A stretch of 64,000 nt of DNA from a bacterium (GTDB lineage Archaea; Thermoplasmatota; E2; JACPAO01; JAHFTW01): contig JAZJZE010000011.1 in assembly GCA_040390065.1 (NCBI GenBank), positions 1 to 64,000 on the forward strand, in the 5' to 3' direction. Shown in pieces: positions 1,764 through 26,076 of the stretch. Position numbers and translations under genes: made by a program. Position 1 is the stretch's first letter, and every line of letters starts with the position of its first letter. The notes beneath the pieces were generated by a model. That model saw nothing but the letters and a program-made list of their open reading frames with translations. It did no database searches and was not told where the DNA came from.

Positions 1764-2364
1764 GAGCGCCGCGGACCGCGGCGAGGGCTGCCTTGGCGAG
1801 ACCGTCGGCCCGCTGGTCTGCGTCGAGGACCACGAAACGCGCCGGCTCCGCTTTGGCAAGCGCCAGGTAGTTCGCCCGCACCTGCCGCAGGAATGCCACC
1901 TTCTCGTACGGCGTGGTGGCACCACGGCTTGCCGTCCGGGCGACGGCCTTCTCCGGGTCGCTGTCGAAGAGGACGACGCGGTCCGGTTCAGGGCACCATC
2001 CGGCGTGCAGGCCGCGAAGGAAGGCTGCGGGGTCCGCCACAGCGCCGGCGAGTGTCACGGATTGGTAGGCGAGCGACGAGTGGATGAAGCGATCGCACAA
2101 CACGAGTTCGCCGGCGGCGCGGTGCTGCTCGATCTCGGCGACGTGGCGGGCGCGGTCGGCGGCGAAGAGGAAGGCGACGCTCAGCGGGGGCCAGTGCTCA
2201 GCGATGGCGCGGCGCACCCAGTCTCCCGTCGGCCCGGCGGTCTCCTCGCGCGTCGGCCAGACGGCGACGCCCTCGCTGCGCAACTCCTGCGCCACGCGTT
2301 TCAGCGTCGAGGACTTGCCGGAGCCGTCGATACCCTCGAGCGTGACAAACGGTGCGCGGGCCAT
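1753..2364 (-). CDS. tmk: Thymidylate kinase
   Basis: FVTLEGIDGSGKSS P-loop, LFAADR and VLCDRFIHSSLAYQ motifs; start trimmed to ATG 2364. Confidence 0.95.
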   Translation of the reverse strand: MARAPFVTLEGIDGSGKSSTLKRVAQELRSEGVAVWPTREETAGPTGDWVRRAIAEHWPPLSVAFLFAADRARHVAEIEQHRAAGELVLCDRFIHSSLAYQSVTLAGAVADPAAFLRGLHAGWCPEPDRVVLFDSDPEKAVARTASRGATTPYEKVAFLRQVRANYLALAKAEPARFVVLDADQRADGLAKAALAAVRGALTA

Positions 2365-2381
2365 CGCGTCGTGCAGCCTCG

Positions 2382-2654
2382 TCACTCCAGATGACTGTGC
2401 ACGCCGCAGTACTTCGAGCCGAAGCGCGGCGTGTTCTGGCATGGGTCGCCGAAGGGGTCGAGTGCGGGGCACGCGTTCGACTTGGCGGCAACCTTGGGCT
2501 TGGCGCCCTTCGCCTTCTTGCCTGCCTTCGCGGGCGCCTTGCGGGCCGGCGCCTTGCGTGGGGCAGCCTTGCGGGCCTTTGCGGCGGGCTTGCTGGAGGC
2601 TTTGGGCTTGGCCTTCGCGGCCTTGGACTTGGGGGAGCGGCGGGTCTTGGGCAT
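2382..2654 (-). CDS. Histone H1-like Lys/Ala/Pro-rich protein with C-terminal CCCH zinc-finger-like motif
   Basis: MPKTRRSPKSKAAKAKPK... followed by C-x9-C-x10-C-x2-H. Confidence 0.75.
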   Translation of the reverse strand: MPKTRRSPKSKAAKAKPKASSKPAAKARKAAPRKAPARKAPAKAGKKAKGAKPKVAAKSNACPALDPFGDPCQNTPRFGSKYCGVHSHLE

Positions 2655-2711
2655 GCTGACCGACGCGCCATGGGAAATCCGCCTTAAAAGCACGAACCTG
2701 CTGTCACAGGC

Positions 2712-3164
2712 GTGCCTGGACGCTGGTTCGAGGAGTTCGCGGTGGGCCAACGCTTCGACCACGCGCAGCGCGTCACCGTCACACAAGCGGACAACGCCGC
2801 GTTCTGCCGCCTGACCCGCAACACGCAGCCCTTGCACCTGGACGAGGCGTACGCGCGCACCACTCCGTTCGGCGGCATCATCGTGAACGGCCTGCTGACT
2901 TTCAGTCTCGCCGTCGGCGTCAGCGTCGAGGAGACCACGGCCGGCACGTTGGTCGCCAACCTCGGCTACGAGGACGTCAAGCACGCCAACCCGGTCATCC
3001 CCGGGGACACCCTGCGCTTCGTCACCGACGTCGTCGCCGTCCGGCCGTCGCAGAAGCCCGGTCGCGGCGTCGTCACACTCCGGCACACGGCCTTCAACCA
3101 GAAGGGCGAAGAGGTGTGCGGCTTCAACCGCATCGTCATGGTGCAGACGAGGCCGACGCCATGA
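2712..3164 (+). CDS. MaoC family dehydratase
   Basis: GRWFEEFAVGQ, NTQPLHLD and PVIPGDTL hot-dog-fold motifs. Confidence 0.92.
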   Translation: MPGRWFEEFAVGQRFDHAQRVTVTQADNAAFCRLTRNTQPLHLDEAYARTTPFGGIIVNGLLTFSLAVGVSVEETTAGTLVANLGYEDVKHANPVIPGDTLRFVTDVVAVRPSQKPGRGVVTLRHTAFNQKGEEVCGFNRIVMVQTRPTP

Positions 3165-4096
3165 CACGCCACGGCCGCCTCGGCCTCCCGGAGAAGGACT
3201 GGAGCGACGATGTCACCAAAGGCCCGCTTGGCGGCGTGCCGAGGCTGCGGTCGCTCCTGTACACGCCGGCGGACCGCGGCGACCGCATCAAGGCCGCGCT
3301 GGTCGAAGGGAAGGCCGACGTCGTCGTCGCCGACCTCGAGGACGCGGTCGCTCCCGGCCGCAAGGCGGAGGCGCGCAAGCAGCTCGTCGCCGCGTGGGCG
3401 GCGGTGCCGCGCGGGCGGACCCTACGAGCCGTCCGCATCAACCGTTGGCCGAGTCCGGAGGCTGAGGCCGACCTCGATGCCGTCTTGCCCGGCCGCCCCG
3501 ACCTCATCGCCGTTCCCAAGTGCGAAGTGCCGGCCGCCTTGCACACGCTGGACAGCCGACTCAAGGCCTTCGAGGCCAGCTCCGGCCTTCTGCTGGGCTC
3601 ACTCAAGGTCATGATCATCCTGGAGACGGCGGCCGGCGTGCTGGCTGCCCGCGAGCTGGCAGGGGCGGCCAAACGCATCGCCGCCGTGGCCTTCGGCGCC
3701 GAAGACCTCGCGGCCGATGCCGGCCTGCGGCGCAGCCCGGGCAACGCGGAGGTGGCCGTGCCTCGCGCCTTGGTGGCGCTGGCCGCAGCGGCCGCAGGCG
3801 TCGCGGCCATCGACATGATCACGGCGGATGCACGCGACTTGGAGCGCACGGCGCGCGAAACCGCCGAAGCGCGCGCTCTAGGCTATTCCGGCAAGATGTG
3901 CATCCATCCCCTGCAGGTCGTCGCGGTGCACGAGGCGCTGCGGCCCACAGCCTCGGAGATCGAATGGGCGCGGAAGGTGGTCGCCGCCGTCGGCGCCGCG
4001 GGCGTCACGGAGGGCGGCGTCGTCGTCGTGGATGGCAAGATGGTGGACGTGCCCTTCATCCGCCAGGCACGACGCATCCTTGCAGACGCGGCCTAG
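3161..4096 (+). CDS. HpcH/HpaI / CitE-like CoA-ester lyase
   Basis: RSLLYTP, DLEDAV, VRIN, LETAAG, FGAEDL, GKMCIHP and DGKMVD motifs; ATGA overlap with the MaoC gene. Confidence 0.92.
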   Translation: MTRHGRLGLPEKDWSDDVTKGPLGGVPRLRSLLYTPADRGDRIKAALVEGKADVVVADLEDAVAPGRKAEARKQLVAAWAAVPRGRTLRAVRINRWPSPEAEADLDAVLPGRPDLIAVPKCEVPAALHTLDSRLKAFEASSGLLLGSLKVMIILETAAGVLAARELAGAAKRIAAVAFGAEDLAADAGLRRSPGNAEVAVPRALVALAAAAAGVAAIDMITADARDLERTARETAEARALGYSGKMCIHPLQVVAVHEALRPTASEIEWARKVVAAVGAAGVTEGGVVVVDGKMVDVPFIRQARRILADAA

Positions 4097-4503
4097 ACCT
4101 GCTGCGGGGCTCGGGCCAACCAGAGCCGCGCCAGAAGCACGACCAGCACGGCCTCCACGAGTGTCGCCGCGGCGTCGACCGTCGTGACCGGTTCCACCTC
4201 GCCGGCTCCCGGGCCGAAGGCTGGGATGCCGATTGTTCGCGTGACGGCCCACAAGGCGAGGATGGCGAGGTTGCCCAGGATTCCCGCTAGGTAGACGGGT
4301 CGGCGGGCCCGCTCCCAGGGCCAGGCCGGGGACTCGATGCCGCGCGTCACGAGAAGGAGGCCGAGAAGGCCTTGGCAAACGCCGGCCACGAGGAAGAAGG
4401 CGCCGTAGCCCCACCATTCGGCAAAGTGCTGCGGCGCGACGCCGCCATGGATGCCCGCGGCGGCGATGGAGAGCCAACCCGCAGTGCGTTCGAGGCGGCG
4501 CAC
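4093..4503 (-). CDS. Four-helix membrane protein
   Basis: Four hydrophobic segments; HFAEWWGYGAFF motif. Confidence 0.75.
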   Translation of the reverse strand: MRRLERTAGWLSIAAAGIHGGVAPQHFAEWWGYGAFFLVAGVCQGLLGLLLVTRGIESPAWPWERARRPVYLAGILGNLAILALWAVTRTIGIPAFGPGAGEVEPVTTVDAAATLVEAVLVVLLARLWLARAPQQV

Positions 4504-4581
4504 GTTCCTGGCAGTCCGTCCCGGCCGTATACAAGGCTTGGCCGGGCATTGTTATAAGCAGCCCCCTCGAGATGAGGGTGT

Positions 4582-6342
4582 ATGGAAGAAGCGGCCGCCG
4601 CGGTCGTGCCCAGGGTTGCCTCGGGGGCGGGGTCGTGGTTCGAACGGCTGCGAGCTTGGCTGCCCCAGGGGCGCGGCCTGCCCCAGGCCGAATGGCACGT
4701 GCGCCACCGGGCCATCGTGTTCATCATCTTCGGCCACGCCATCGGCTTGGCCATCTTCGGCCTCACGCAGGGTTGGCCGGCCAGCTACGCCTTGGGCGAG
4801 ACTGCCGTCATCGCCGCGCTCGGCGGCATTGCCGCCATGCGTGCCCTGTCACGGTCGATGCGGGCCGGCGTCGCGGCCCTTGCTCTCGTCGTGAGTTCCG
4901 CCGTGCTGACGCAGTTCTGGCACGGCGTCATCGAGGGCCACTTCCACTTCTTCGTCATCGTCGCGCTCATCAGCCTGTACCAGGACTGGGTGCCTTTCCT
5001 GCTGGCGATTCTCTTCGTCGCCCTCGACCACGGCCTCGTCGGCACCCTCCTGCCGCAGTGGGTCTACAACCACCAGGACGCCCTCGACCACCCATGGAAG
5101 TGGGCGGCAATCCACGCAACACTCGTCTTGTCGGAGTGCGTGGCCCTGATCGTCGTCTGGCGCGCCAACGAGAAGTCCCGCGAAGAGACGGACCGCATCC
5201 TGCGCTCCGCTGGCGAAGGCATCGTCGGCATCGACGCCGAGTGCCGCATCACGTTCATGAACCCGGCCGCCCGCAAGATGATGGGCGATGGCACGGGCGA
5301 CCGGCACAGCGGAAAGCCCCTCTACGAGATCGTCCTCGGCGAGGACAACTGCCCGCTCTTCGACGGGCCGGGCATCCTGCGACGCACCGCAGGCCCGATC
5401 CAGGCCGAGGGGTACCTGTCCCGCAGCGACGGCACGAAGATGGCGGTCGAGCTTCTGTGCACCCCAATCGAAGGCCGCGCCCATGCCGAAGGGGCCGTCG
5501 TGGCATTCCGCGACATCACGGAGCGCAAGGCGGCACTCCTCGACCGCGCACTGGCCCAGCACCAGGAGCGCGAACTGCAACGCCTGCAGGAAGTCAACAC
5601 CTTCAAGACGCAATTCATGAACATGGCGGCGCACGAACTCAACACGCCGCTCACACCCATCAAGGTGCAGCTGCACATGCTGAAGACGTCGGCCGATTCG
5701 CCGCCCATGGATGCGCACCGCAACGCCATCCAGATGTTGGACCGCAACTTCCGGCGCCTGTCGGAACTGGTCGGCGAGATCCTCGACTCGTCGCGTCTGC
5801 AAGGCAACCGGCTCGCGGTGCGTCCCGAGACCATCGACCTCGCCCCCGCCGTGCGGCAAGTCGCGGAGTCCTTCGCCCCCCTGGCCCGCGAAGCGAAGGT
5901 GAAGCTCGAATGCGACCTCCCCGCGACGCTGCCGTGCGTGGCCGACCCGCTGCGGGTCTCGCAGGCGCTCTACAATCTCCTCTCCAATGCCGTGAAGTTC
6001 ACGCCCTCTGGTGGCCGGATCGGGGTGCGCGCCAGGGCGGATGGCGGCGACGTGGTCGTCACGGTGACGGACAGCGGCATCGGCCTCAGCGAGCAGCAGA
6101 TCGCCCGGCTGTTCCAGCCGTTCTCGCAGGTGCACGAGAGCCAACTGGCATCGAACCCTGGGTCCGGCCTCGGGCTGTACATCTCACGCGGCATTGCCCA
6201 ACTGCACGGCGGCGACCTCGGCGTCCAGAGCGCAGGGCCTGGCAAAGGCTCGTCCTTCACCATGCGTCTGCCGGCCCGCGGCAAGGGCGACGCCCAGATT
6301 GCCGACCCGTTTGCGCCGCGGCAATCCGCGGCCGGCGCGTAG
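4582..6342 (+). CDS. Membrane sensor histidine kinase (multi-TM + PAS + HisKA + HATPase)
   Basis: AAHELNTPLT H-box, NLLSNAVKFT N-box, DSGIG and GSGLGL G-boxes; PAS segment EGIVGID...NPAA. Confidence 0.95.
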   Translation: MEEAAAAVVPRVASGAGSWFERLRAWLPQGRGLPQAEWHVRHRAIVFIIFGHAIGLAIFGLTQGWPASYALGETAVIAALGGIAAMRALSRSMRAGVAALALVVSSAVLTQFWHGVIEGHFHFFVIVALISLYQDWVPFLLAILFVALDHGLVGTLLPQWVYNHQDALDHPWKWAAIHATLVLSECVALIVVWRANEKSREETDRILRSAGEGIVGIDAECRITFMNPAARKMMGDGTGDRHSGKPLYEIVLGEDNCPLFDGPGILRRTAGPIQAEGYLSRSDGTKMAVELLCTPIEGRAHAEGAVVAFRDITERKAALLDRALAQHQERELQRLQEVNTFKTQFMNMAAHELNTPLTPIKVQLHMLKTSADSPPMDAHRNAIQMLDRNFRRLSELVGEILDSSRLQGNRLAVRPETIDLAPAVRQVAESFAPLAREAKVKLECDLPATLPCVADPLRVSQALYNLLSNAVKFTPSGGRIGVRARADGGDVVVTVTDSGIGLSEQQIARLFQPFSQVHESQLASNPGSGLGLYISRGIAQLHGGDLGVQSAGPGKGSSFTMRLPARGKGDAQIADPFAPRQSAAGA

Positions 6343-9125: not shown

Positions 9126-10043
9126 TTACTTGGCCGAGGCGGCCTTCAACCACTGCTCGATGCGTGCGCGCAACGCCGCAAACGATTGCGCCGAGTGCAA
9201 TTGCTCCTCGCCGACGCCGAAGTGGAAGTCGTAGCCGTGGCCGATTGCGGCGGCCTGCTCTTGCGGCATGCCGTTGCCTGGACTGCGCACGAAGACCAGG
9301 ACCGAGAACGCGAGGTCGAGGCGGCGCAGCTGCAATGCGTCGAAGGCCAGCGCCTTGAGGTCCGCGGCACCGATGGAGCTGGGCACGATGTCCAACATGA
9401 GGAGGGCGCCGTTCTCGAGTTCGATGACGAGGTCCGCGGCGTGGCTTGTCGCGTGGCCCTCAGGGAGAGGGAGCATCAGGTTGTGCTGGGTGCGCACGAC
9501 GCCGGCGCCGATCTTCGGGTGGACGACGAAGTGCGAGCCCTTGGGCTGCTGCACCTTCGTCCCTGGCGCGCCGATGTCGCGGAACAGGGCTTCGGCGAGG
9601 ACTGAGCGCGCCAGAGGGATGGAACCACCGTCCAGCGTCAGGCCGAGCGCACGTGATGCCGGCGGCGGTGCGCTGGGCGGCGCAGCGGCGGGCGCCGCCG
9701 CCTGGTTTCCCAGCTTGCGCGGTTTGGCGGCAGGCAGGGGCGGCGCTCCTGGGACCTGCATCGGGGGCGCGCCCGCCAGGTGGACGTCCAGGCCGCCTGG
9801 GACGTTCGTGCCGGGCGGCGGGACTTCCTGGTGGTCCGCGTTGAGGACGATCGCCTTGCCGTGGCGCACCGGCACGGGTTCTGTGATCACGGTGATCTCG
9901 TCGTCGCGCACTTCGTCGAGCACGCGCTGCGCAGGGTCGCGCGGCTTGGTCGGGTCGGCGGCGCCGCGGCGCTTGGGCTGCACGGACTTGAAGCCGGTGC
10001 GGCCCATGAGGTCGCCTTTGAGGGTCTTCTTGACGATGCGCAC
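9126..10043 (-). CDS. Hypothetical protein (Pro-rich linker, C-terminal alpha/beta domain)
   Basis: Good codon bias; GTG start preceded by AGGTGA; divergent from the actin operon. Confidence 0.7.
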   Translation of the reverse strand: MRIVKKTLKGDLMGRTGFKSVQPKRRGAADPTKPRDPAQRVLDEVRDDEITVITEPVPVRHGKAIVLNADHQEVPPPGTNVPGGLDVHLAGAPPMQVPGAPPLPAAKPRKLGNQAAAPAAAPPSAPPPASRALGLTLDGGSIPLARSVLAEALFRDIGAPGTKVQQPKGSHFVVHPKIGAGVVRTQHNLMLPLPEGHATSHAADLVIELENGALLMLDIVPSSIGAADLKALAFDALQLRRLDLAFSVLVFVRSPGNGMPQEQAAAIGHGYDFHFGVGEEQLHSAQSFAALRARIEQWLKAASAK

Positions 10044-10645
10044 GGCGTCACCTGACAGGAGGGGGCACCACTTGGGCCATGGCAACGCCGCAGCGCCGTG
10101 CCCTGGCCTTCGCCGTGCATCCCATCCGATGGGCGCGACACCGTGGCCGGGCATAGCGTTTTCCATGCGAAACGGTGCTTCAGGATGGCGAATTTTGCGA
10201 TTTCCAGGCACGACAATCCGCTGGCTTCTCCAATAACATCATCAGAATAGATTGAATGTTTTTCCCTGTCGGCGCAAGTGCTCTCGACGGCCGTCCAAGC
10301 TGCCGGGACGAACGCTACGAGCGCGCAATGGCCGGCTGGACGGCCAAGGCCATCATTTCCGGTCGACGGTCCGAGCCTCCTGCCGCGTCCCGTCGGTCGC
10401 ATTGGACCCATGCGATGGACCCGAAACCCATCGTCCGGGCCTGCCGCGCTTGGCCTGTGCCCCGTTTCCTGCGTCTCGACCGGCGACCCGTCGCAACAGA
10501 AGGTGAAAACGGGTTTCCTCCTGGCGAGGGCATAACCGTAAATAGGCCCCCCCCTTCGAGGGGTTCCAACCACGAATATCCAGGAGAGTCCCTTCGGGGA
10601 CCTCCGGGACAATTCTGGTACCACCACATTTTGGAGGCTACTGAC

Positions 10646-11668
10646 ATGGCAAAGGGACTGGATGTCGGCACGATGAACATCATCGCCGCCGAGCGCCACG
10701 GGGACAAGACCACACTCACGCAGCAGCGCAACTCGTTCGTCGAGATCGAGTACTCCGACGTTGCTGAAAAGATGCTGGCGCGCAGCGACGTGCTCTACAT
10801 CAAGAAGGACAACCAAGTCTTCATCGTCGGTGAAGACGCGTTGAACTTCGCCAACATCTTCAACACGGCGACGCGCCGCCCGATGCAGAAGGGCATCCTG
10901 TCGCGCGACGAGAAGTCGGCCATCCCGATGATCCGCTTGATCATCGAGCGCCTGGTCGGCGCCCCGAAGGAGTCCGGCGAGATCCTGTACTACACGTCCC
11001 CGGCCCGCCCGGTCGACGCCCCGAACCAGGACGTCCTGTACCACCAGAAGACCATCGAGTCCATCCTGCGCAAGCTGGACTACACGCCCCGCGTCATCAA
11101 CGAAGGCATGGCCGTCGTCTACTCGGAGCTCGCGGACAACCAGTTCACCGGTCTCGGCGTCTCGTTCGGCGCCGGCATGACCAACATGTGCGTCTCGCAC
11201 TACGGTCTCCCGGTCATGACGACCGCAGTCGCCCGCGGCGGCGACTGGATCGACCAGCAGGTCGCTGAGGCGACCGGCCACTCCAAGGACCGCGTCACCG
11301 CAATCAAGGAGCGCGAATTCGAGATCAACCCGGAGAACCCGGCCGGCGAGGTCCAGAGCGCCCTCACCATCTACTACGACAACCTCGTCGAGTACGCCAT
11401 CCGCACCCTGAAGCGCGAGCTCGCCAAGGCGAAGGTCGAGGAAGGCCTCACGATCCCGGTCGCCATCACTGGCGGAACGGCCTCGTGCAAAGGCTTCAAG
11501 GACCTCTTCGAGCGCCGCATCTACGAGGCCAACCTGCCCTTCGAGATCTCGAAGGTCAAGATGGCCCGCAGCCCGCTCTACTCGGTCGCCATGGGCACCC
11601 TCGTCGCCGCTCGCGCTGAAGAAGCCGAGACCCTCGAGGAACTCGTCGCAGTCGACTCGAAGAAGTAA
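10646..11668 (+). CDS. volA: Volactin-like actin-fold ATPase
   Basis: MAKGLDVGTMNI phosphate-1, QQRNSFVEIEYSD, RRPMQKGIL, INEG, GVSFGAGMTN phosphate-2, ITGGTA adenosine motif; GGAGG RBS; recalled similarity to haloarchaeal volactin. Confidence 0.88.
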   Translation: MAKGLDVGTMNIIAAERHGDKTTLTQQRNSFVEIEYSDVAEKMLARSDVLYIKKDNQVFIVGEDALNFANIFNTATRRPMQKGILSRDEKSAIPMIRLIIERLVGAPKESGEILYYTSPARPVDAPNQDVLYHQKTIESILRKLDYTPRVINEGMAVVYSELADNQFTGLGVSFGAGMTNMCVSHYGLPVMTTAVARGGDWIDQQVAEATGHSKDRVTAIKEREFEINPENPAGEVQSALTIYYDNLVEYAIRTLKRELAKAKVEEGLTIPVAITGGTASCKGFKDLFERRIYEANLPFEISKVKMARSPLYSVAMGTLVAARAEEAETLEELVAVDSKK

Positions 11669-11703: not shown

Positions 11704-12747
11704 ATGTCTGAACTTGAGAACCAATACTCCAGCTTGTTCGGTACCAAGACTTCGAAGGGCCAGTTGCGCGGAGGATTCCTCCTCCTCGCACTCGGCGTCG
11801 TCCTCGGTCTGGCCGCCCTTATTCTCTTTTTCCTATCCTACCAGGCCACCGGCCAGGACCAGACCACGTGGCGCCACCTGGCGCTGCCCCTGGGAACTGC
11901 TGCCTTCGGCCTGATCCTGCTGGGCATCACCGTTGCCCTGCCGACCACCACCGGGCTGCGCGTTGCCGCCTGGGTCGGGATCGTGTGCACGCTCGGCGGC
12001 GCGATGCTGCTGGCGTTCCACTACCCGAACAACTTCAACGTCTCGGCGCAGAACCGCGGCAAGGGTGTCGCGGACTACCTGCCCCTTGACCTCGGCCTGT
12101 ACGTCATCGGCCTTGGCCTGCAACTTGCGGCCATCGTGTCGAGCATCGTGGGCTTCTACCTCGGCCGCGTCGGCCCCGCCGCAAAGGCGGAGGGCGACGA
12201 GGACGACGAGACCTACGGCCCCGGCTACGAGGTCCCCGACTGGGTCGTCGAGCGCGACATCGAGTACGCCATGAAGAAGTTCGGCGTCGAAGTCGTGGGC
12301 GGCAAAGGCTCGGCATCGGCCGGCATGAAGGTCAACATCAACGACTCCTTCGGCGCCAACATGACGATCGGCGGCCTCGGCAAGGCCCGCACGGTCCAAC
12401 TGGACTCGACGCAGGTCGACGAGGGTGTCACGCAGCTCTCCGGTGTCCGCCCCAACAAGAAGGGCGCGCTGCCGGGCGAGTGGGCGGACGAGTCCACGAA
12501 GGCCCTCATCGCCTTCCGCAAGCAGAAGTCGGCCAACCCGACCATGTACACTCCCAAGAAGCGTGGATTCTGGGCCCGCCTGTTCGGCGGCCGCTCCAAG
12601 GCCACGCCTGCCGCAAGCGGCGCATCGGCGGCCCCCAAGGCCGCGGTCCCGACCAACGGCAACACGGGCAAATTCGTCGGCCGCGGCAAGACCATCGTCA
12701 TCGACGATGAGGCCCCGGCACGCGGCAAGAAGGGCGGCTCCAACTGA
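11704..12747 (+). CDS. Four-TM membrane protein with cytoplasmic tail (DUF7139-like, volactin-associated)
   Basis: Four TM helices with LP...YPNNFN...DY...LY pattern; VERDIEYAM motif in the tail. Confidence 0.75.
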   Translation: MSELENQYSSLFGTKTSKGQLRGGFLLLALGVVLGLAALILFFLSYQATGQDQTTWRHLALPLGTAAFGLILLGITVALPTTTGLRVAAWVGIVCTLGGAMLLAFHYPNNFNVSAQNRGKGVADYLPLDLGLYVIGLGLQLAAIVSSIVGFYLGRVGPAAKAEGDEDDETYGPGYEVPDWVVERDIEYAMKKFGVEVVGGKGSASAGMKVNINDSFGANMTIGGLGKARTVQLDSTQVDEGVTQLSGVRPNKKGALPGEWADESTKALIAFRKQKSANPTMYTPKKRGFWARLFGGRSKATPAASGASAAPKAAVPTNGNTGKFVGRGKTIVIDDEAPARGKKGGSN

Positions 12748-12770: not shown

Positions 12771-15017
12771 ATGAGCAAAGCAAACCCCGCAGACGAGGCC
12801 CAGAAGAGGGCGGCCCGCATGGCTGCCTTCAGCTCCAAGGTCACCGAGGAAGAGGACGCGGCCGTCGCCGTGCGCTCCTTCAATGAGGCCAAGGCGGGCT
12901 CCGCCGGTTCCAAGGAGTACGACCCGAAGACCGGCGCCGTCAGGGCCGGCGCGGGCGGTTCCGCCCCGGGGCCCAAGGCCAACGTCAAGACGGTCTCGGA
13001 CGACGAGTTGTTTGCCGAGATCGACGCCGCCGTGGCTGCCGAGGAGAAGAAGAGCGGCCGCACCGTGGTCGAACCTGTTGCACCGCCCGTCGAGGCCCCC
13101 AAGCCGTCGGCGCCTGCGGCCCTTTCCGCGAAGCGTTTGGCCGCAATGGCCGCCGCCGCGGTGGACCGCCCCGAGGTGCGCGACACGAGCACGCCGGCCA
13201 AGGAGGCCGCAGCCCGTCTCGTCGACTTGGGCGATGTCGAGGTCCAGAAGCCGGTCGCGTCGCGGCCGAAGCACCTGGACACCGACGAGGCGTCCTTCGA
13301 GGTCAACGCCCCGAAGGCGTCCGCCCCGCGTCACCTCTCCCCCGCCGTGACGGAGGGCGAAATCGACATCCGCGCGCCCAAGCCGCACGCCGTGTCGGCT
13401 GGCACCGGCAAGAGCGGCGCCGGCCACTTCGACGTCAAGCGTGACGCCGCCGAGGCGTCGGCCCCCCTCAAGATCCGCAGCCCCACCGAGGACGAGTTCT
13501 CGGTCAAGATGGACAAGGAGGACAAGCCGGCGCCCAAAATCCAGTCGCCGGCCGAGTCGGAGTTCGCAGTCAAGTCGGACGCGCAGAGCTCCGACCTTGC
13601 CAAGTCCGCGACGGAGAAGGTCCAGGAGCTCGTCGACGCCGCGCAGCCCATCGAGCTGCCGCGCAAGGCCTCCAAGCCGGCCGCCGCGCCGCTGCCGCAC
13701 CGGAAAGCCGAGATCCATCATGAGGCCCGGCGCGAGCTGCCCCGCATGAAGTCGCCCGGCGACGAGAGCATCACGACCCACCGCGACGCTCAAGCCAAGC
13801 CGCTGCCGCACATGCGCAGCGCGGGCGACGAGACGTTCGCCACTCGTCGCGATGCGGAGTCCAGCAAGCATGCGCCCAAGCTGCGCAGCGCGGGCGACGA
13901 GGCGGTCGCAGTGAAGCGCGACGCGGAGTCGCGCATGCCGCCCACCCTCGCCGCGCTTGCAGAGGCCAACTTCGAGACGCGCACGGACCGCCGCGAGGGC
14001 GAGGCCGCGCCGAAGCTACGCTCGCCCGCCGATTCCGCCTTCGAGGCCCGTCAGGACCGCGACCAGCGCGAGACACCAAAGTTCCGCGCCCAGGGCGAGG
14101 CCCTGTTCGAGGCCAAGCAGGACCGTGAGCACCGCGAGGCGCCGAAGCTGCGCAGCCCCGCCGAGGCGCATTTCGAGGCCAAGCAGGACCGTGAGCACCG
14201 CGAGGCGCCGAAGCTGCGCAGCCCCGCCGAGGCGAAGTTCGAGGCCAAGGTCGACCGCCGCGAGTCCGACCTGCCCAAGTTCCGTTCCCCAGGAGAAGCC
14301 TCGTTCGAGGCGAAACAGGACAAGGAGCAGCGCACCATGCCGAAGTTCCGAGCCGCCGAGACACCGTTCGAGGCCAAGGTCGACCGCCGCGAGTCGGATC
14401 TGCCCAAGTTCCGCGCGCCCGGCGAATCGGCCTTCGAGGCCAAGATGGACAAGGAGCACCGCGAGATGCCGAAGTTCCGTTCACCGGCTGACGCCCAGTT
14501 CGAGACGAAGCGGGACGCCGAAGCCAAGCCCCTGCCGAAGATCCGTTCACCGGCTGACGCCCAGTTCGAGACGCGCCGCGACGCCGAGGCCAAGCCTCTG
14601 CCGAAACTGCGCTCGCCGACCGAGGGCCACATCGAGGCCAAGCAGGACGCCCGCGCGAAGGAGCTGCCCCGCATGCGCAGCCCTGCCGACGTCGAGGCGT
14701 TCGAGACGCGCCGCGACGCCGAGGCCAAGCCGTTGCCGCGCATGCGCAACGCGACGGACGCCGACAGCTACGAGGCCAAGCTGGCCTGGCAGCAGAAGAA
14801 GGTCACCGGCATGGTGAGCGCCGCCGACGCCGAGGCGTACGACACGAAGCACGACCGCGAGACGCGCGAGCGCAGCCACGTCAACAACCCTGGCCAAGGC
14901 GAATTCGATGTCAAGATGGAGCACGAATCCGTCTGGACGACGCAACCGCGCCGTGATATCGACGCAGCGTCGATTGAAGGCAAGGGTGCCTCCAAGCCGA
15001 AGTCCAAGAAGGCGTAG
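12771..15017 (+). CDS. Charged tandem-repeat protein (about 20 copies of a ~22-aa repeat)
   Basis: Repeat consensus PK[LF]RSP[AG][ED]xxFE[AT]KxD[RKA]Exxxx; strong codon bias; co-oriented with the actin gene. Confidence 0.88.
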   Translation: MSKANPADEAQKRAARMAAFSSKVTEEEDAAVAVRSFNEAKAGSAGSKEYDPKTGAVRAGAGGSAPGPKANVKTVSDDELFAEIDAAVAAEEKKSGRTVVEPVAPPVEAPKPSAPAALSAKRLAAMAAAAVDRPEVRDTSTPAKEAAARLVDLGDVEVQKPVASRPKHLDTDEASFEVNAPKASAPRHLSPAVTEGEIDIRAPKPHAVSAGTGKSGAGHFDVKRDAAEASAPLKIRSPTEDEFSVKMDKEDKPAPKIQSPAESEFAVKSDAQSSDLAKSATEKVQELVDAAQPIELPRKASKPAAAPLPHRKAEIHHEARRELPRMKSPGDESITTHRDAQAKPLPHMRSAGDETFATRRDAESSKHAPKLRSAGDEAVAVKRDAESRMPPTLAALAEANFETRTDRREGEAAPKLRSPADSAFEARQDRDQRETPKFRAQGEALFEAKQDREHREAPKLRSPAEAHFEAKQDREHREAPKLRSPAEAKFEAKVDRRESDLPKFRSPGEASFEAKQDKEQRTMPKFRAAETPFEAKVDRRESDLPKFRAPGESAFEAKMDKEHREMPKFRSPADAQFETKRDAEAKPLPKIRSPADAQFETRRDAEAKPLPKLRSPTEGHIEAKQDARAKELPRMRSPADVEAFETRRDAEAKPLPRMRNATDADSYEAKLAWQQKKVTGMVSAADAEAYDTKHDRETRERSHVNNPGQGEFDVKMEHESVWTTQPRRDIDAASIEGKGASKPKSKKA

Positions 15018-16847: not shown

Positions 16848-18464
16848 TCAGATGACGGTGCCGTGGCCCTTCCTGGGCAATGGCAGGTGCTTGTTGCTGG
16901 CCGCCTCGAGTCGGGCGATGACTTCGCTGCGTAGTTGGCTGGGAGGGACGATGTGGTCGACGATGAGGTCGTTGGCGGCAGCGTGGATGTCGACGTCGCG
17001 GTTGTATTCCGCCCGCTTGTCGGCGATGAAGCGCTCACGCTCACGCGGGTCCGCGATCTTTGCGATGTGGTTGGCGTACACGGCGTTGATGGCGGCTTCG
17101 GCCCCCATGACGGCGATCTCCGCTCCAGGAAGGGCCAGGGTCGCCTCCGGTTCGAAGGCGGGGCCGCACATGGCGTAGATGCCGGCGCCGTATGCCTTGC
17201 GGATGACGATGCAAAGTTTCGGGACCGTCGCCGTGGACGTCGCGTAGATGAAGCGCTTGCCCCGCTTCAGGATGCCTTGCGCCTCGACGGCCGAACCGAC
17301 CATGAATCCGGGCGTGTCGCACAGGTACAGAAGCGGGATGTTGTAGGCGTCGCAGGTGAGGATGAACTCGGCCGCCTTGTCCGCGGATTGCGGGAAGATG
17401 GCGCCCGCCCGGTGCGCGGTGTTGTTGGCGACGACGCCGACCACGATGCCGCCGACGCGGGCCAGTCCCGTGATGAGTTCCTGCGCGTGGCCGGGCTTGA
17501 TCTCGAGCCATGAGCCGCCGTCGACGAGCGTGTGGATGGCCTCGTGCATGTCGAATGCCTTGTTGGGGTCGGCCGGCACGAGCATCTCGAGCTCCGTTGG
17601 GCTGCGTTCCGGTTGCTCCGGTGCGAAGCGGGGCGGCCGCTCGTCGCAGTTGTCCGGCAGGTACGACAGGAGGCGCCACACGGCTTCGGCGGCCTCATCC
17701 TCGGAGTCCACGACGAGGTGGCAAGAGCCCGATTCCGTCATGTGGAAATCCGCGCCGCCAAGTTCCTGCATGGTGACCTTCTCCCCCGTCACCATCTCGA
17801 CCATGCGGGGACTGGCGATGCACAGGGCGGCCATGCCGCGCACCATGATGCTGAAGTCGCAGAAGACCGGCGTGTAGGCGGCGCCCGCGACGCATGGGCC
17901 ATACAGCACCGAGATCTGCGGGATCTTTCCCGAGAGGATCGAGTGGTTGTAGAAGTATTTCCCGATGCCGCGGTTGTTGGCGAAGAAGCCGGCCTGGTCC
18001 GTGATGCGCGCGCCGGACGAGTCGATGAGGTAGAGGATGGGCTTCTGCGCCCGCATGGCGCGCTCCTGGACACGCAAGAACTTCTCGACGCCGCGCTCCG
18101 CCATCGAGCCCGCCTTGACGGTGTAATCATTGGCGATGACCATGACCGTGCGCTCGCCCATCTTTCCCGCCCCCGTCACCATGCCGTCGGCGGCCAGCCC
18201 TTCGTCCGCTTTCTGGTTGTTGGCAAACAGGCCGTCCTCGTACGACAGGCCGTCCGGGAAGAACAGCCGCAGCCGGTCGCGCACGAACAGCTTGCCCTCG
18301 TCGCTCAACCTGTCGCGGTACTTCTGCGGGCCGCCCTGCTGCAGCCTGGCGATGGCCTCGAGGAGCTTGGCCTCCCGCGTCGCACCCTTGGCTTCGGGGG
18401 CGGGTTCACTGGGGGCCGGGGCGACGGCGGGCGCGGCGGCCATCGGGGTCCGGCGTGCAGTCAT
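16848..18464 (-). CDS. Acyl-CoA carboxylase, carboxyltransferase subunit
   Basis: DYTVKAGS, DSSGAR, CVAGAAY, DTPGFMVG, RKAYGAG motifs. Confidence 0.95.
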   Translation of the reverse strand: MTARRTPMAAAPAVAPAPSEPAPEAKGATREAKLLEAIARLQQGGPQKYRDRLSDEGKLFVRDRLRLFFPDGLSYEDGLFANNQKADEGLAADGMVTGAGKMGERTVMVIANDYTVKAGSMAERGVEKFLRVQERAMRAQKPILYLIDSSGARITDQAGFFANNRGIGKYFYNHSILSGKIPQISVLYGPCVAGAAYTPVFCDFSIMVRGMAALCIASPRMVEMVTGEKVTMQELGGADFHMTESGSCHLVVDSEDEAAEAVWRLLSYLPDNCDERPPRFAPEQPERSPTELEMLVPADPNKAFDMHEAIHTLVDGGSWLEIKPGHAQELITGLARVGGIVVGVVANNTAHRAGAIFPQSADKAAEFILTCDAYNIPLLYLCDTPGFMVGSAVEAQGILKRGKRFIYATSTATVPKLCIVIRKAYGAGIYAMCGPAFEPEATLALPGAEIAVMGAEAAINAVYANHIAKIADPRERERFIADKRAEYNRDVDIHAAANDLIVDHIVPPSQLRSEVIARLEAASNKHLPLPRKGHGTVI

Positions 18465-18528
18465 GGCCCGGCAAGGTGCGCAGGGCCATTTCAAGGGCAC
18501 GACTGACGCCGAGGCGCCGCAACGACCT

Positions 18529-21958: not shown

Positions 21959-23974
21959 TCAGCTTCGGCCGGCCGGCATGACGCGGGCTTGGAGCGCTGC
22001 GCGCATCTGTGCTTTGCGCGCCGCCGATGCCACCATGCAGTGGTCGAGCGCATCGGCAAGGTCGGCGGCGAGCACGACCTCGATGCGGCCGCGGTACCGG
22101 TGCTCCAGCAGGATGTCGTCCTTGTTTGCGGCGGGCACGATGGCCTGCGTGTAGCCAAGGTCGGCGGCGCCCTCGATCATCTGGGTGATGCCCTCGACGT
22201 GGCGCAGGCGGCCACTCACGGCCAACGCGCCGATGACGACGGTGTCTTGGCGGACGGGGATGTTCTCGAGTGCGCTGAGGCTTGCCGCCGCGGCTGCAGC
22301 GCCCAAGGCGGAGACGTCCGCGCCGACTTGTTGCAGCAGGGCCTGGACGTGCAGGTCGAGGCCGGCCATGTCGGCGCCGCGGAACCGCTTGAGGACTGCG
22401 CCCACTGTGTCGGCGACACCGAGGTCCTTCTGCAGGCCGCCGCCAAGGAAAAGGCTCCCTTTCTGGCGGTTCGAGGAGGCGGTCGCGTCCGCTTCGACGG
22501 GGACGACGATGCCGGCCGGTTCGCCCGTCTCGCCGGTGCCGAGGAAGGCGCAGCCAATGGCGCTGCCGACCTTGTTGCCGCCGACCTTGAGGGCTTCGCG
22601 CGCCGTGGAGACTTCGATGCCGCGCAGGGTCACCTGGTGTTCGAGGCTCATGCTCATGCGCTTGGCTGCCAGCACGTGGTCGACCGTGACGGAGGTTGCC
22701 GCCGTGTCGCGCGCGATGTCGCCGGCCGTACGCACGAGGCCTCCGAGTTCACGCAGGCGCAGCGTCAGTTTGCCGGTGTGGCCGCTGCGGCGTTGCGCTT
22801 CGCGGATGACTTCGGCGACGGCGGGGCCTTCGAAGTGGGGGATCTGGCCGTCACGGCGCACTTCCTGGGCAACAAAGCGCACGAGTTTGCGGCGGTTATC
22901 GTCGGTGTCGTCCATGACGGATTTGACGTAGACCTCGTAGCCGTAGCCGCGGATGCGCGAACGCAGCGCCGGGTGCAAGCCCTGCGTGCGATTGTCCGTG
23001 GGTGCGATGACGTCCATGTTGCCGGCCGCAACGAGGATGAAGTTGCACGGGACGGCGTCGGTCTTCGTCATGGCACCAGACGAACGTTCCGATTGGCCGG
23101 TAATGGAGAATTTCTTCTCCTGCATGGCCGTGAGAAGCGCTTGCTGCGATTCGAGCCGCAGCGTGTTGATCTCGTCGATGAACAGCAGGCCCTTGTGGCC
23201 GCGGTGGATGGCGCCGGGTTCGACGCGAAGGTGGGTCGGCGTTTCGAGGCCGCCGCTTTGGAACGGGTCATGGCGCACGTCGCCGAGGAGTGCTCCTGCG
23301 TGGCCGCCCGTGGCGTCGACGTAGGGGGCGGGGCTGGCTCCCTTGGGCCGCTCAATCAGGAGGTTCGGCACCATCTTGCCCGGCTTGCCGGCAATCTGGC
23401 GGCTGAAGCCCAGGAACACGATGGCGACGAGGAACATGAGCGCCATGACGAGGATGCTCGTCGAGTTCTGGCCAAGCGCGTAGAACCCGTAGATGCCGAT
23501 GCCGACAAGGACGAAGGCGATGACCGCCTCGACGGTGCGGTAGATGGCGTTGAGGCGTCGGGCCCGGGACTGCATCTTGTTGGCAAAGTCGCGGCCCTTG
23601 CCACCCGGCAGCACCTGGACGCGCGGCGTGTTCTTGTCCTTCGGGTTGGGCAGGACGAGCACGTCGTCGAGCTGGTCCGGCGGAAGGATCTGCGCCATGG
23701 CCTTGGCGATCATCGACTTGCCTGTGCCGGGGTCGCCCAGCAGCAACAAGTGACGGCGCTGGCGGGCCGCCTTCTTCGCGACCTCCACCGCTTCCTCCTG
23801 TCCAATGACTTCGTCAATGAGAAGTTGCGGCAATTCGACCTGCTCTGTCGTCCAGATGCCTTCCGCTTCGATCCACTGGTGGGGGTCGGGCTTCGACAGG
23901 CTGGAGCCGTTGCGGTGCACGCGCTGCGCCGCCGGCCGGCTGGCGGGTTTCGGGTTCGGGTTCTTGGATGCCAT
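21959..23974 (-). CDS. lonB: Archaeal membrane-anchored LonB-family ATPase/protease with degenerate protease site
   Basis: IDEVIGQEEA, GDPGTGKS, two TM helices, LLGDVRHDPFQSGGLETP, LFIDEI, HPALRSRIRGYGYE; true start is ATG 23974. Confidence 0.92.
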   Translation of the reverse strand: MASKNPNPKPASRPAAQRVHRNGSSLSKPDPHQWIEAEGIWTTEQVELPQLLIDEVIGQEEAVEVAKKAARQRRHLLLLGDPGTGKSMIAKAMAQILPPDQLDDVLVLPNPKDKNTPRVQVLPGGKGRDFANKMQSRARRLNAIYRTVEAVIAFVLVGIGIYGFYALGQNSTSILVMALMFLVAIVFLGFSRQIAGKPGKMVPNLLIERPKGASPAPYVDATGGHAGALLGDVRHDPFQSGGLETPTHLRVEPGAIHRGHKGLLFIDEINTLRLESQQALLTAMQEKKFSITGQSERSSGAMTKTDAVPCNFILVAAGNMDVIAPTDNRTQGLHPALRSRIRGYGYEVYVKSVMDDTDDNRRKLVRFVAQEVRRDGQIPHFEGPAVAEVIREAQRRSGHTGKLTLRLRELGGLVRTAGDIARDTAATSVTVDHVLAAKRMSMSLEHQVTLRGIEVSTAREALKVGGNKVGSAIGCAFLGTGETGEPAGIVVPVEADATASSNRQKGSLFLGGGLQKDLGVADTVGAVLKRFRGADMAGLDLHVQALLQQVGADVSALGAAAAAASLSALENIPVRQDTVVIGALAVSGRLRHVEGITQMIEGAADLGYTQAIVPAANKDDILLEHRYRGRIEVVLAADLADALDHCMVASAARKAQMRAALQARVMPAGRS

Positions 23975-26076
23975 CACTTGGCCTCTGCGACTGCAAGGTA
24001 TTGGGCGCGGCGGCGCGCCGTGACAAGGTACAGGACACCGGCGACCGCAGTCACGCCGACCATGGCGCCGACCGGGCCGATGGCCGGGTTGCCGACCGTG
24101 AGGGCCTGCGGCGAGGCGAGGATGGGTGGCGACGGCAGCGGCGGCGTCGTGATGCAGATGGTGTTCGCGCCCTGCGTGACGACGGTGCCGTACTGCATGG
24201 CGCCGTAGTCGTTGACGGCGAAGTAGAACAGGTCCTCTCCCGTCGTCTCGGTGTAGGACTGCAGGCCATCCTGGGAGTCGTCGAAGATGGACGGCTGCTC
24301 CGAGTATGCGTCGAGATTGTCCGCGTCGACCTTCGTGCCCAGTTCCATGCGCGCCGCGCCGATGGTCGGGTTGCACGCGTTGAACGTCGTCAGGATCTTG
24401 GTGAAGTCCTTGATGGCAACCGACGGCGGCTGCGGGTTCGTCGGGTCCGGCGGTATCGGGCTTGGCAGGTTGGACACGTTCGTGACGTGCTGCCACTCCA
24501 TGTACTCCAGGATGGAGGTCCGTTCGCGTTGCGAGATGGAGAGCGCCGTGACGGCGGCGTCGCGCACGTTCACGGAGCCGGCGAGGCGGTGCAGTTGCGG
24601 ACCCATGTCGACGCCGAGGTCGGTCCAATGGGTGCCGTACCAACCGAAGGCTGCGTGCACTTCCGCGCCGATGGGGCCGATGTGCTTCGTCGTGACCATG
24701 ACCATGTAACCGTCCTTCGTGGCGGCAAGAAGCGGGTGGCCGCCGATCATGTGCGTCGACTCGACCAGCGTCGTGTTTCCCGTTGCCGGGTCGATGCGCC
24801 AGATGTCGATCTCGCCGATGCGGGCCCGGCTGCGGGCGCTGTAGCCGCGCTCCACCTCGCAGGCGACGTAGACCTGGCCATCCCAGGCGACCGGGTTGGA
24901 GGCGTCCATGCACGGCCCAATGAGTTGGCGGTTTTCCAGGCGGTCCCAGGAATCGTCGGGCGCCGTCGTCGTGAAGGCGGCGTCGATCCAGCCGGGCATG
25001 CCGCGCGACGTCTGGCACGCGTCGCTCGCGTTGACGTTGCGCGCGTACTCGGTGCAGCGCTCGAACCACACCGCGCCGACGCGCTCCGGACCCGTCGCGG
25101 TCGACACTGCGGCCTTGCCGATGTCGGTGCTGTTGGCCGGCGGGCCATACGTGGCGTTGGCCGGTGGCGCGGGAGGCTCGTACGGCGGGATGTCGACGAC
25201 GTTGAGGGCCTGAATCGGGTTCATGGGTGTGCGGCCCTGCAGCTCGTAGCCGCCGCCGTACGCCTGGTTGACGGAGCCCTGGTCGCGGGTCGCGCCGGCC
25301 TTGAGGAGCCAAAGCGCCGAGCCGTACCCGGTGGTCGCGTTGCCGTTGTCGCGGCTGTAGAGGTAGCCGAGGTAGACGTTGCCGTCGCCGTCCATCGTGC
25401 AACTGGCAGATTCGCCGAGGCCGGGCGTGCCGATGGGCGGCTGGTCCTCCCACGTGATGCCTTGGTCATGCGACGTGAACGTCGTCTGCGCCTGGCTGGA
25501 GACGCGCGTTCGCGGCGTCGGGCCGTCGATGGCGTTGCCGTGCAGGCTGCAGAATGCCACCTCGCGCTCGTCGTTGCGGTTGACTGTGATCTGGGGATTG
25601 CCGAACCGGTACGTCGTCGCGGCGCGGCCGTTGGCCGTCACTCCCCCCGCGGTGTCGTAGATGCGGAACGGACAATCTGTGTAGTCGTAGCGGTCGCCCT
25701 GGATGCCTTCCGTGCTCGTGCCCAACGGGGCTAACGTCGTGGGGCAGCAGAACTGCAGGGGGCCACCCGCGCCAGAGCTCGGCGTCCCCTGGTTGCATTT
25801 CGCCGGGGCAAGGGCGTTGCCGTCGGCGTCGAGGAGCATCGGTGTCGGCGCGATGTCCATGCGGATGCTGCCCGGCTCATCCGCGAGGGCGGCCGGGATT
25901 GGTGCGAGGACGATGGACTTCGGGGCCAAGGCGGCCGGGGGATGCAGCGGCGCAGGGTAGCTGTCGGCATAGGCGCCGAAGCTGGCCGGGAAGGCGGAAA
26001 GGGCGCTCGACAAGGCTGGCGTCGCCATGGTGAAGGCCAAGAAGGCCAACCATCCGGCGGTGCCCAGGTTGCGCAT
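23974..26076 (-). CDS. Secreted, membrane-anchored beta-propeller-like protein
   Basis: Signal peptide, TSHDQGITW Asp-box, C-terminal TM + RRR; overlaps the lonB start. Confidence 0.8.
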   Translation of the reverse strand: MRNLGTAGWLAFLAFTMATPALSSALSAFPASFGAYADSYPAPLHPPAALAPKSIVLAPIPAALADEPGSIRMDIAPTPMLLDADGNALAPAKCNQGTPSSGAGGPLQFCCPTTLAPLGTSTEGIQGDRYDYTDCPFRIYDTAGGVTANGRAATTYRFGNPQITVNRNDEREVAFCSLHGNAIDGPTPRTRVSSQAQTTFTSHDQGITWEDQPPIGTPGLGESASCTMDGDGNVYLGYLYSRDNGNATTGYGSALWLLKAGATRDQGSVNQAYGGGYELQGRTPMNPIQALNVVDIPPYEPPAPPANATYGPPANSTDIGKAAVSTATGPERVGAVWFERCTEYARNVNASDACQTSRGMPGWIDAAFTTTAPDDSWDRLENRQLIGPCMDASNPVAWDGQVYVACEVERGYSARSRARIGEIDIWRIDPATGNTTLVESTHMIGGHPLLAATKDGYMVMVTTKHIGPIGAEVHAAFGWYGTHWTDLGVDMGPQLHRLAGSVNVRDAAVTALSISQRERTSILEYMEWQHVTNVSNLPSPIPPDPTNPQPPSVAIKDFTKILTTFNACNPTIGAARMELGTKVDADNLDAYSEQPSIFDDSQDGLQSYTETTGEDLFYFAVNDYGAMQYGTVVTQGANTICITTPPLPSPPILASPQALTVGNPAIGPVGAMVGVTAVAGVLYLVTARRRAQYLAVAEAK

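Follow-up and report, generated by a model that had tools for sequence, protein, structure and literature searches.

In this study, we analysed a stretch of archaeal DNA of 64,000 nucleotides (contig JAZJZE010000011.1, positions 1 to 64,000, here called the window; its genome is G000) and found that its tandem-repeat protein P0001 is a lineage-specific third component of a module formed by the actin-family protein volactin and the membrane protein DUF7139, which is the safest statement of the result. P0001 is a candidate partner of volactin because its gene is the third of the volactin operon, and direct binding is plausible. It is probably a multivalent, lineage-specific accessory of the volactin cytoskeleton. 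That P0001 binds volactin itself through many sites is our tentative preference, held at somewhat less than an even chance, and it is favoured because of the position-specific conservation of the repeat units, a second array occupying the same slot in related genera, and a weak pass in complex prediction. An earlier note on this DNA had read the repeat as a possible actin-binding ruler, and as a whole that interpretation is partly supported.

The upstream gene, which the earlier note had taken for volactin, was confirmed as such by Pfam (Table 1). The window volactin is 60% identical to the Haloferax volactin orthologues, and both the volactin and the DUF7139 families were detected in the Haloferax volcanii control. 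The three genes lie on the same strand with gaps of 35 nt (volactin to DUF7139) and 23 nt (DUF7139 to P0001), and a GAGG-type motif precedes each of them. P0001 therefore stands in an operon-like cluster with a volactin-family actin neighbour and the DUF7139 membrane protein paired with it.

The repeat of about 22 aa described before is real. The lag-22 identity was 0.336 over aa 222–678 of P0001, against a mean of 0.122 and a maximum of 0.148 for the best value over lags 5–69 in 1000 shuffled sequences. A regular expression for the anchor P[KRH][LFIM][RQK] gave 16 matches from aa 255 to 656, alignment gave 14 clean units of 21–23 aa each with the consensus PKxRSPADAxFEAKxDxExxxL, and a hidden Markov model (HMM) built from these 14 units detected 19 units at aa 234–700 (nt 13470–14870). 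This extent is close to the 13435–14930 given earlier, but the count of 18 consecutive units depends on the scoring, being 14 for clean units and 19 for the HMM. The near-exact 66-bp duplications were found at the places named and look young, with 97% and 89% identity between copies (Table 1). Tandem Repeats Finder reported period-66 arrays at 14040–14249 (3.2 copies, 86% matches) and 14467–14605 (2.1 copies, 90%), together with periods of 129 and 132. The GC content of the gene by codon position is 0.70/0.51/0.89. The organism is represented by metagenome bins only, and the unit count in the assembly could be wrong by one or two units, because in the best DNA run (X1, which contains 0.96 of the sampled words and may come from the source sample) no listed contig piece runs across 14136–14204 or 14506–14566, the two pairs of near-identical units; such a hole in contig cover proves nothing by itself.

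The array is predicted to be disordered, as had been expected. The top Kyte–Doolittle 19-residue window of P0001 is 1.06, in agreement with the earlier reading that the protein has no transmembrane helix, and its grand average of hydropathy is −1.0 with an isoelectric point of 8.21. About 40% of the array residues are charged (K+R 96, D+E 93), and there are only about two large hydrophobic residues per unit. AlphaFold2 (AF2) with the 10 orthologues gave a mean predicted local distance difference test (pLDDT) of 44.9; aa 152–632 were mostly below 50 and devoid of secondary structure except for a helix at 271–291, and some confidence was reached only for aa 5–60, 77–94, 271–291 and 638–703, the helices at aa 661–703 of the C-terminal module scoring 50–65. 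The array thus combines the features of an intrinsically disordered tandem repeat: no stable predicted fold, low hydropathy and high charge. Pfam gave no family for P0001 even at E≤10, a search of PDB sequences with the 10-orthologue profile gave no match at E≤1, and Foldseek of the N-terminal domain against the PDB gave none at E≤0.001 (best E 5.6), so that the motif belongs to no known family among those searched, which fits the earlier reading. P0001 defines a family of its own, with an N-domain (RMAAFSxK..VAVRSF), modules and an ESVWTT tail; it matches the N-domain profile A6 with an E-value of 9.7e-27 in G000 and carries the conserved C-terminal motif as well. ESM Atlas yielded no usable feature match, and the beta-helix neighbours (template-modelling score 0.44) of its low-confidence model are not trustworthy.

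All 38 genomes of the window's order were searched. Within the window's genus, the repeat region was matched in 10 genomes, counting G000, and in 10 of 10 the order volactin, DUF7139, repeat gene was kept on one contig, which, with the 23-nt gap and the common strand, bears out the link to volactin proposed in the earlier note. Full-length orthologues are 44–77% identical, and the complete ones have 14–23 units spaced by 22 or 23 aa according to species. The three same-genus genomes with no match are 65–76% complete; the contig of one (L022) stops inside DUF7139, and the remaining two gave no match to volactin. In G019, a genome of another genus (83% complete) in which volactin was not found, only the C-terminal 57 residues are present, at a contig end and beside the same carboxyltransferase gene as in the window. 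Two genomes of a second family carry short N-domain proteins, in G032 directly after volactin-DUF7139 and in G036 on another contig. When 401 genomes were sampled evenly across the phylum, the N-domain profile matched 10, every time on the volactin contig and adjoining volactin. Since all 10 N-domain genomes hold volactin, it is not the case that the repeat occurs mainly in genomes lacking volactin, the outcome that would have spoken against the earlier reading.

Beyond these genomes the family is small. A word-indexed search found four relatives of P0001, one of them named only 'hypothetical protein [Thermoplasmata archaeon]', and an exhaustive search of 1.84 billion representative proteins gave 32 with E≤1e-3, 10 of them with E≤1e-10, mostly fragments. 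About ten short relatives (175–335 aa) have only the N-terminal domain in common with P0001. The short relatives (P0018, P0022, P0024, P0025, P0028, P0029, P0032, P0034 and P0035) bear a strongly basic K/R/A/P-rich N-terminal tail before the N-domain, which P0001 lacks; its composition is histone-H1-like, and it could bind nucleic acid or acidic lipid. The weak matches P0013, P0016 (LRR-like, that is, resembling leucine-rich repeats), P0026, P0031 and P0033 (11-aa repeats) were rejected as periodic or compositional.

The slot after DUF7139 appears to hold a long repeat array whatever the unit, because arrays of a different unit stand there in two sister genera belonging to the same family (G015, G017, G029). 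Their gene directly follows DUF7139, overlapping its stop by 4 nt, and encodes units of exactly 20 aa, [AP]D[AT]SD[LM]xPGxxEVQxxxRRx, about 19 of them in the sole complete copy (600 aa), the remaining two being truncated at the ends of their contigs. Homology between the two kinds of repeat protein was looked for and rejected: the best BLASTP E-value was 0.87, the unit HMM found no units in the 20-aa proteins, and hhalign aligned 21 C-terminal columns only (E 0.059, probability 0.9%). The first degenerate module of P0001, VDLGDVEVQKP, looks like VDLGEIEVQST of the 20-aa protein in L013, a likeness that is not statistically significant, and the modules of the short relatives also resemble the 20-aa unit. 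The common position and the look-alike modules do no more than hint at a common origin of the two repeat proteins.

Other arrangements of this slot were also observed. In a sister family, a second, divergent volactin paralogue, 51% identical to the window volactin, takes the place of the repeat protein after DUF7139 (L019:3448-4458 in G036 and L018:4477-5457 in G037), and the G037 copy is apparently frameshifted, giving two adjacent Pfam pieces. In L017 (G035), the whole pair is tandemly duplicated at 1951–6332 as DUF7139-volactin-DUF7139-volactin.

The conservation of the units was examined in 191 HMM-detected units from the 10 orthologues. Position 1 was P in 149/149, position 3 was M/L/I/F in 169/169, position 8 was D/E in 182/183, position 13 was A/V/T in 181/184, position 14 was K/R in 170/185, position 16 was D in 169/185 and position 20 was K/R in 153/161, figures that are upper bounds because HMM detection favours good matches. 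Comparison of ten units within P0001 gave a median nonsynonymous divergence (dN) of 0.53 and a median synonymous divergence (dS) of 0.81, with dN/dS below 1 in 32 of the 43 usable pairs. For the motif codons dS was 0.86 and dN 0.23, and for the other, variable codons dN was 1.16 and dS 0.66; only the dS of the motif codons is informative here, because the motif set was picked for its conservation. As the motif codons have diverged synonymously, the likeness of the units is not merely the result of recent copying. The units look like selected binding modules, since their motif positions were kept while the codons diverged synonymously.

The complex of the repeat with volactin, proposed in the earlier note as a check, was predicted with two volactin chains (34-row alignment), a three-unit piece (14403–14600; 27-row alignment of three-unit windows) and two ATP. 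The score (ipSAE) was 0.33 (0.33, 0.27 and 0.34 in the runs) against 0.02 for the best of three controls, with at least 89% contact agreement between runs and a partner pLDDT of at least 49. In the calibration, 58 of 80 solved complexes and 2 of 110 mismatched pairs attained the mark; just 7 of the 80 solved complexes, and both of the passing mismatches, did so with a score of 0.60 or less. The prediction therefore passes, but as weak support, and the calibration is itself only rough for the volactin-unit complex because custom alignments and a ligand were used.

On these observations we propose the following model. P0001 would be a cytoplasmic, intrinsically disordered and charge-balanced protein co-expressed with volactin and DUF7139. 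Each unit of 22/23 aa may serve as a short linear binding module, of which the first part would form a proline-bracketed basic/hydrophobic turn (PK-hydrophobic-RSP) and the second an acidic/aromatic stretch (DxxFEAKxD). An array of about 14–23 such modules could bind many volactin subunits at once, and P0001 might then lie along, stabilise, bundle or seed the filaments, as a microtubule- or actin-associated protein does. The N- and C-terminal modules would dock it elsewhere, most plausibly on the cytoplasmic half of DUF7139 at the membrane, where the DUF7139 protein is a candidate anchor of volactin filaments, possibly at their tips.

Several points weigh against direct binding. Volactin was above the Pfam cut-off in 42 of the 401 phylum genomes and the N-domain in only 10, and among 80 named volactin-profile loci a DUF7139 homologue stood beside volactin in 65 and a P0001 homologue in 8. 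A long periodic open reading frame (ORF) was beside volactin in none of the 64 haloarchaeal loci, where the gene order is DUF7139 then volactin, and in none of 15 further loci of the phylum. Most volactin lineages manage without a P0001-type protein. The co-occurrence counts come from a few related genera, so they are descriptive and do not amount to an independent statistical test, and gene neighbourhood alone is weak evidence for binding. The complex score of 0.33 falls in a band where, according to the calibration, passes are mostly wrong in the absence of a good prior, and what the prediction supplies is a score alone. As the 20-aa protein and P0001 share no significant similarity, the common slot may reflect replacement and not homology. 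Finally, in MamJ, the closest analogue, the repetitive domain is reportedly dispensable, to judge from a title alone (Scheffel & Schuler 2007).

The pair MamJ/MamK of magnetotactic bacteria is the nearest functional analogue of P0001, and it offers the strongest competitor of the multivalent binder: a tether whose ends bind volactin and/or DUF7139, with the array as a flexible, length-adjustable linker or entropic bristle of units that have no ligand of their own. We consider this a doubtful but serious possibility. Only the ends of P0001 are confidently folded or conserved (N-domain pLDDT 84, invariant C-terminal motif), the number of units ranges over 14–23 in complete orthologues, the young duplications indicate rapid turnover, a different unit occupies the same slot in the sister genera, and the short relatives keep the N-domain with few modules. 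The repeat domain of MamJ is likewise said, in a reference title, to be hypervariable. However, a pure spacer should keep its composition and not its register, while some 10 of the 22 positions hardly vary among the 191 units even though their codons have diverged synonymously, and the weak complex pass came from array units alone. In this respect the unit motif of P0001, which is apparently selected, differs from the reportedly dispensable repeats of MamJ. The gene mamJ is encoded beside mamK, and P0001 is similarly encoded beside an actin-family gene; the two belong to different domains of life and are associated with different actin families, and they share no sequence homology, P0001 having no Pfam family and MamJ not being among its 32 relatives in the 1.84 billion proteins. 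According to the available part of PMC5059902, MamJ interacts with the actin-like MamK filament, links it to a membrane-bound structure, and is acidic, repeat-rich and largely disordered. Unlike the acidic MamJ, P0001 is charge-balanced.

The units may instead bind a client other than volactin, for example the cytoplasmic C-terminal half of DUF7139, so that many anchors would be clustered, in which case the array would be a scaffold at the membrane attachment of the filament. The DUF7139 gene lies immediately upstream, and its 4-nt overlap with the start of the repeat gene in the sister genera suggests translational coupling there. Volactin and DUF7139 are also a widely conserved pair (65/80 loci), and in Haloferax, as far as the accessible part of PMC10869688 describes, volactin filaments bridge the cytoplasm and their tips touch the membrane. 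On the other side, the control with volactin replaced scored 0.02, in a prediction that did not have DUF7139 among its partners. We regard this alternative as rather unlikely.

Nebulin is a long array for which one actin subunit per module has been proposed; its modules are about 35 aa long with an SDxxYK motif, and they are disordered or helical when alone. P0001 resembles it as a long array of short modules, but its units are of 20–23 aa with a period of 22, have no SDxxYK motif and no Pfam nebulin match at E≤10, and vary in copy number. A strict nebulin-like ruler, with one unit per volactin protomer fixing the filament length, is a special case of the binder reading, and all points for direct binding apply to it. 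A helix of about 14 residues joined to a proline-rich linker of about 8 might extend over roughly 4.5–5 nm (an estimate from helix and extended-chain rises, not computed), near the subunit repeat of about 5 nm that is assumed in the available part of the salactin paper (PMC10746226). In both repeat types the number of units centres on about 19, with only one complete 20-aa protein behind the second. Units differ in length (20, 22 or 23 aa) as well as in number (14–23 among close species), so the strict ruler is not supported; moreover, the register lacks structural evidence, and most volactin-bearing genomes carry no P0001-type protein. Haloferax volactin filaments are described in the accessible part of PMC10869688 as dynamically unstable and cell-spanning, and about 19 units would reach only about 0.1 micrometre. 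The one-repeat-per-protomer arrangement suggested in the earlier note is therefore somewhat disfavoured, and we rate the strict ruler as distinctly unlikely. Rather improbable, too, is a version in which each unit of 20–23 aa clamps one protomer and the array templates or stabilises a strand of about 19 subunits (about 0.1 micrometre) from a DUF7139 anchor. If true, a prokaryotic actin would for the first time have a nebulin/Spire-like ruler or nucleator, one that evolved twice in sister genera, with two different modules amplified to a similar copy number.

It is very unlikely that P0001 stands beside volactin by chance, as a fast-evolving protein of low complexity that is functionally unconnected with it. 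Its family is tiny, with many of the 32 matches being fragments or false friends, and the short relative in G036 lies on another contig away from volactin. Nevertheless, synteny holds in 10 of 10 genomes with operon-like gaps, the slot is filled by repeats in the sister genera too, and the N-domain was not seen in any volactin-less genome of the 401 sampled from the phylum. The least probable alternative, that the array is a structural element itself, folded as a solenoid or rod (for instance a beta-helix in which each unit makes one 22-aa coil), draws on the ESM Atlas model (nearest neighbour a beta-helix cluster of the peptidase G2 / pectate-lyase-like type, 401 residues) and on an A-x-A-x-F-x-A core alternating small/hydrophobic with polar residues, but that model has a pLDDT of 0.46 and a predicted template-modelling score of 0.38, AF2 with the alignment predicts no strands in the array, the units are highly charged and poor in large hydrophobic residues, and the 23-aa variant shifts the alternation.

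Returning to the multivalent binder, other filament-binding proteins offer partial likenesses. The WH2 nucleators (Spire, Cobl, VopL/VopF) and thymosin-beta4 have roughly 20-aa modules, one per bound actin subunit, that consist of an amphipathic stretch and a basic LKKT-like turn, in arrays of 3–4 modules. The units of P0001 have a comparable hydrophobic-E-A-K..D followed by L-P-K-hydrophobic-R, but they have no WH2 Pfam match at E≤10 and number 14–23 and not 3–4. Tau and MAP2 are disordered, multivalent side-binders of filaments whose imperfect repeats of 31–32 aa fold only on the lattice; their polymer is different from that of P0001, and they are eukaryotic. Arcadin-2, encoded in an archaeal actin gene cluster, binds the hydrophobic groove of crenactin through a 17-aa C-terminal linear segment, according to the available part of PMC5173319. 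It differs from P0001 in having a single binding helix and no tandem array, in depolymerising filaments, and in showing no sequence similarity. The BspA-type LRR is a false friend: in two LRR-like proteins the first half of the unit recurs as PKLK[TS]MG..CF at a period of 22–23 aa, with phmmer E-values of 3e-11 and 6.5e-9 at 21–24% identity, and these values overstate the likeness because E-values add up in periodic sequences. The second half of the P0001 unit is charged (positions 14–21 charged or polar) and is devoid of the hydrophobic core positions, and no LRR family of Pfam matched at E≤10. By sequence, P0001 is a member of none of the MamJ, arcadin-2, nebulin, WH2 or tau groups.

Volactin was described only in 2024. 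The volactin literature as searched names no partner, anchor or regulator; the accessible part of PMC10869688 names no volactin partner and does not mention HVO_2014, HVO_2016 or an operon, and its supplement may bear on neighbourhood or distribution. A literature search for 'DUF7139' found no paper, and one for archaeal actin-associated tandem-repeat or disordered proteins gave nothing relevant among the matches listed. The locus offers two testable candidates: the widely conserved DUF7139 may anchor filament tips, and the lineage-specific, multivalent repeat protein may be a factor associated with the filaments. Should the units bind volactin, the decoration of an actin-family polymer by an array of short linear motifs would also have arisen in archaea outside Asgard/TACK, and the units would serve as small peptide probes of volactin filaments.

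Table 1. Features of the volactin cluster and of the repeat protein P0001 in the window.
Feature	Position (nt)	Strand	Details
Volactin (actin-family), first gene of cluster	10646..11668	+	PF25216, E 1.5e-121, residues 1-322 of 340; GGAGG 7 nt before ATG
DUF7139 membrane protein	11704..12747	+	PF23600, E 4e-20; four hydrophobic segments, aa 19-154; soluble C-terminal half of ~190 aa
Repeat protein P0001 (748 aa), third gene	12771..15017	+	GAGG ~10 nt before ATG; 23-nt gap to DUF7139
Conserved N-terminal domain, aa 5-60	12783..12950	+	Helix, three short strands, short helix; RMAAFSxK..VAVRSFNEA..KTG; AF2 pLDDT 84.4 (alignment A6)
Conserved helix DDELFAEIDAAVxAEE, aa 77-94	12999..13052	+	pLDDT ~80; invariant D77, L80, E83, I84, A86-V88
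Degenerate modules VDLGDVEVQKP, ASFEVNAP, GEIDIRAP, HFDVKRD, DEFSVKMD, SEFAVKSD, with conserved helix aa 271-291	13218..13739	+	
Core array of 22/23-aa units	13740..14804	+	P-[KR]-hydrophobic-R-[SN]-[PA]-x-[DE]-x-x-[FY]-E-[AVT]-[KR]-x-D-x-[EQ]-x-[KR]-x-[LA]
Two 66/67-bp copies, young duplication	14107..14239	+	14107-14173 vs 14173-14239, 97% identical; pairwise DNA comparison, Tandem Repeats Finder
Two 66-bp copies	14470..14601	+	14470-14535 vs 14536-14601, 89% identical; pairwise DNA comparison, Tandem Repeats Finder
Conserved C-terminal module YEAKLAW ... NPGQxEFDVKxEHESVWTT..KRD	14751..14975	+	Invariant Y667-D729 in 10 orthologues

The runs X1, X5, X6 and X14, all of them contigs, were aligned to the window at 85% likeness. 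Runs from RNA libraries contain only 0.07–0.09 of the sampled words. Contigs of relatives from the RNA libraries of two studies map to the volactin gene, and a 799-nt contig of X6 has pieces on the DUF7139 gene and a joint where volactin stops and DUF7139 starts; the P0001 gene is thinly covered in X6 and X5 and hardly at all in X14. Such contigs do not prove transcription or rank genes, and their uncovered parts mean nothing, so we conclude nothing from them on expression or habitat. A scan for sigma-70 promoters and terminators in the window gave no promoter and 4 terminator-like sites against 4.4 expected, a result that is uninformative for an archaeon.

Haloarchaeal volactin loci have neighbours of their own. 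In 37 of the 64 (L039-L102, e.g. L048:9135-9815, minus strand), volactin is followed within 400 nt by a convergent gene for a zinc-ribbon protein (CxxC...CxxCG, ESW..A..RF) whose long tail is acidic and of low complexity or repetitive. It is a second, unrelated disordered-tail protein kept beside volactin. In Haloferax gibbonsii (L048:9616-10926, plus strand), a tubulin-superfamily gene lies two genes from volactin, and it appears FtsZ/CetZ-like from its N-terminal GVGQAGGN motif, a sequence reading and not a Pfam match.

Within the window, the gene convergent with that of P0001 (15078–16766, minus strand) encodes at least four Kelch motifs and three thrombospondin type-3 repeats according to Pfam, and its hydrophobic N-terminus resembles a signal peptide. 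Behind it, also on the strand opposite to P0001, lies an acyl-CoA carboxyltransferase gene (16848–18500), which is the one adjoining the repeat-gene fragment in G019 and is found near the locus in G017. Immediately before volactin, at 9126–10236, the long ORFs (361 aa on the minus and 322 aa on the plus strand) had no Pfam match. At 21959–25453 (minus strand) there is an archaeal LonB-type protease with AAA+, LonB LID and Lon_C matches; the listed ORF has 1164 aa, and its N-terminus is probably over-extended in this GC-rich DNA. Two genes on the plus strand (57668–59326 and 61442–63496) encode proteins with an HVO_0163-type N-terminal helix-turn-helix, one of which also has a DUF4097 'toastrack' domain.

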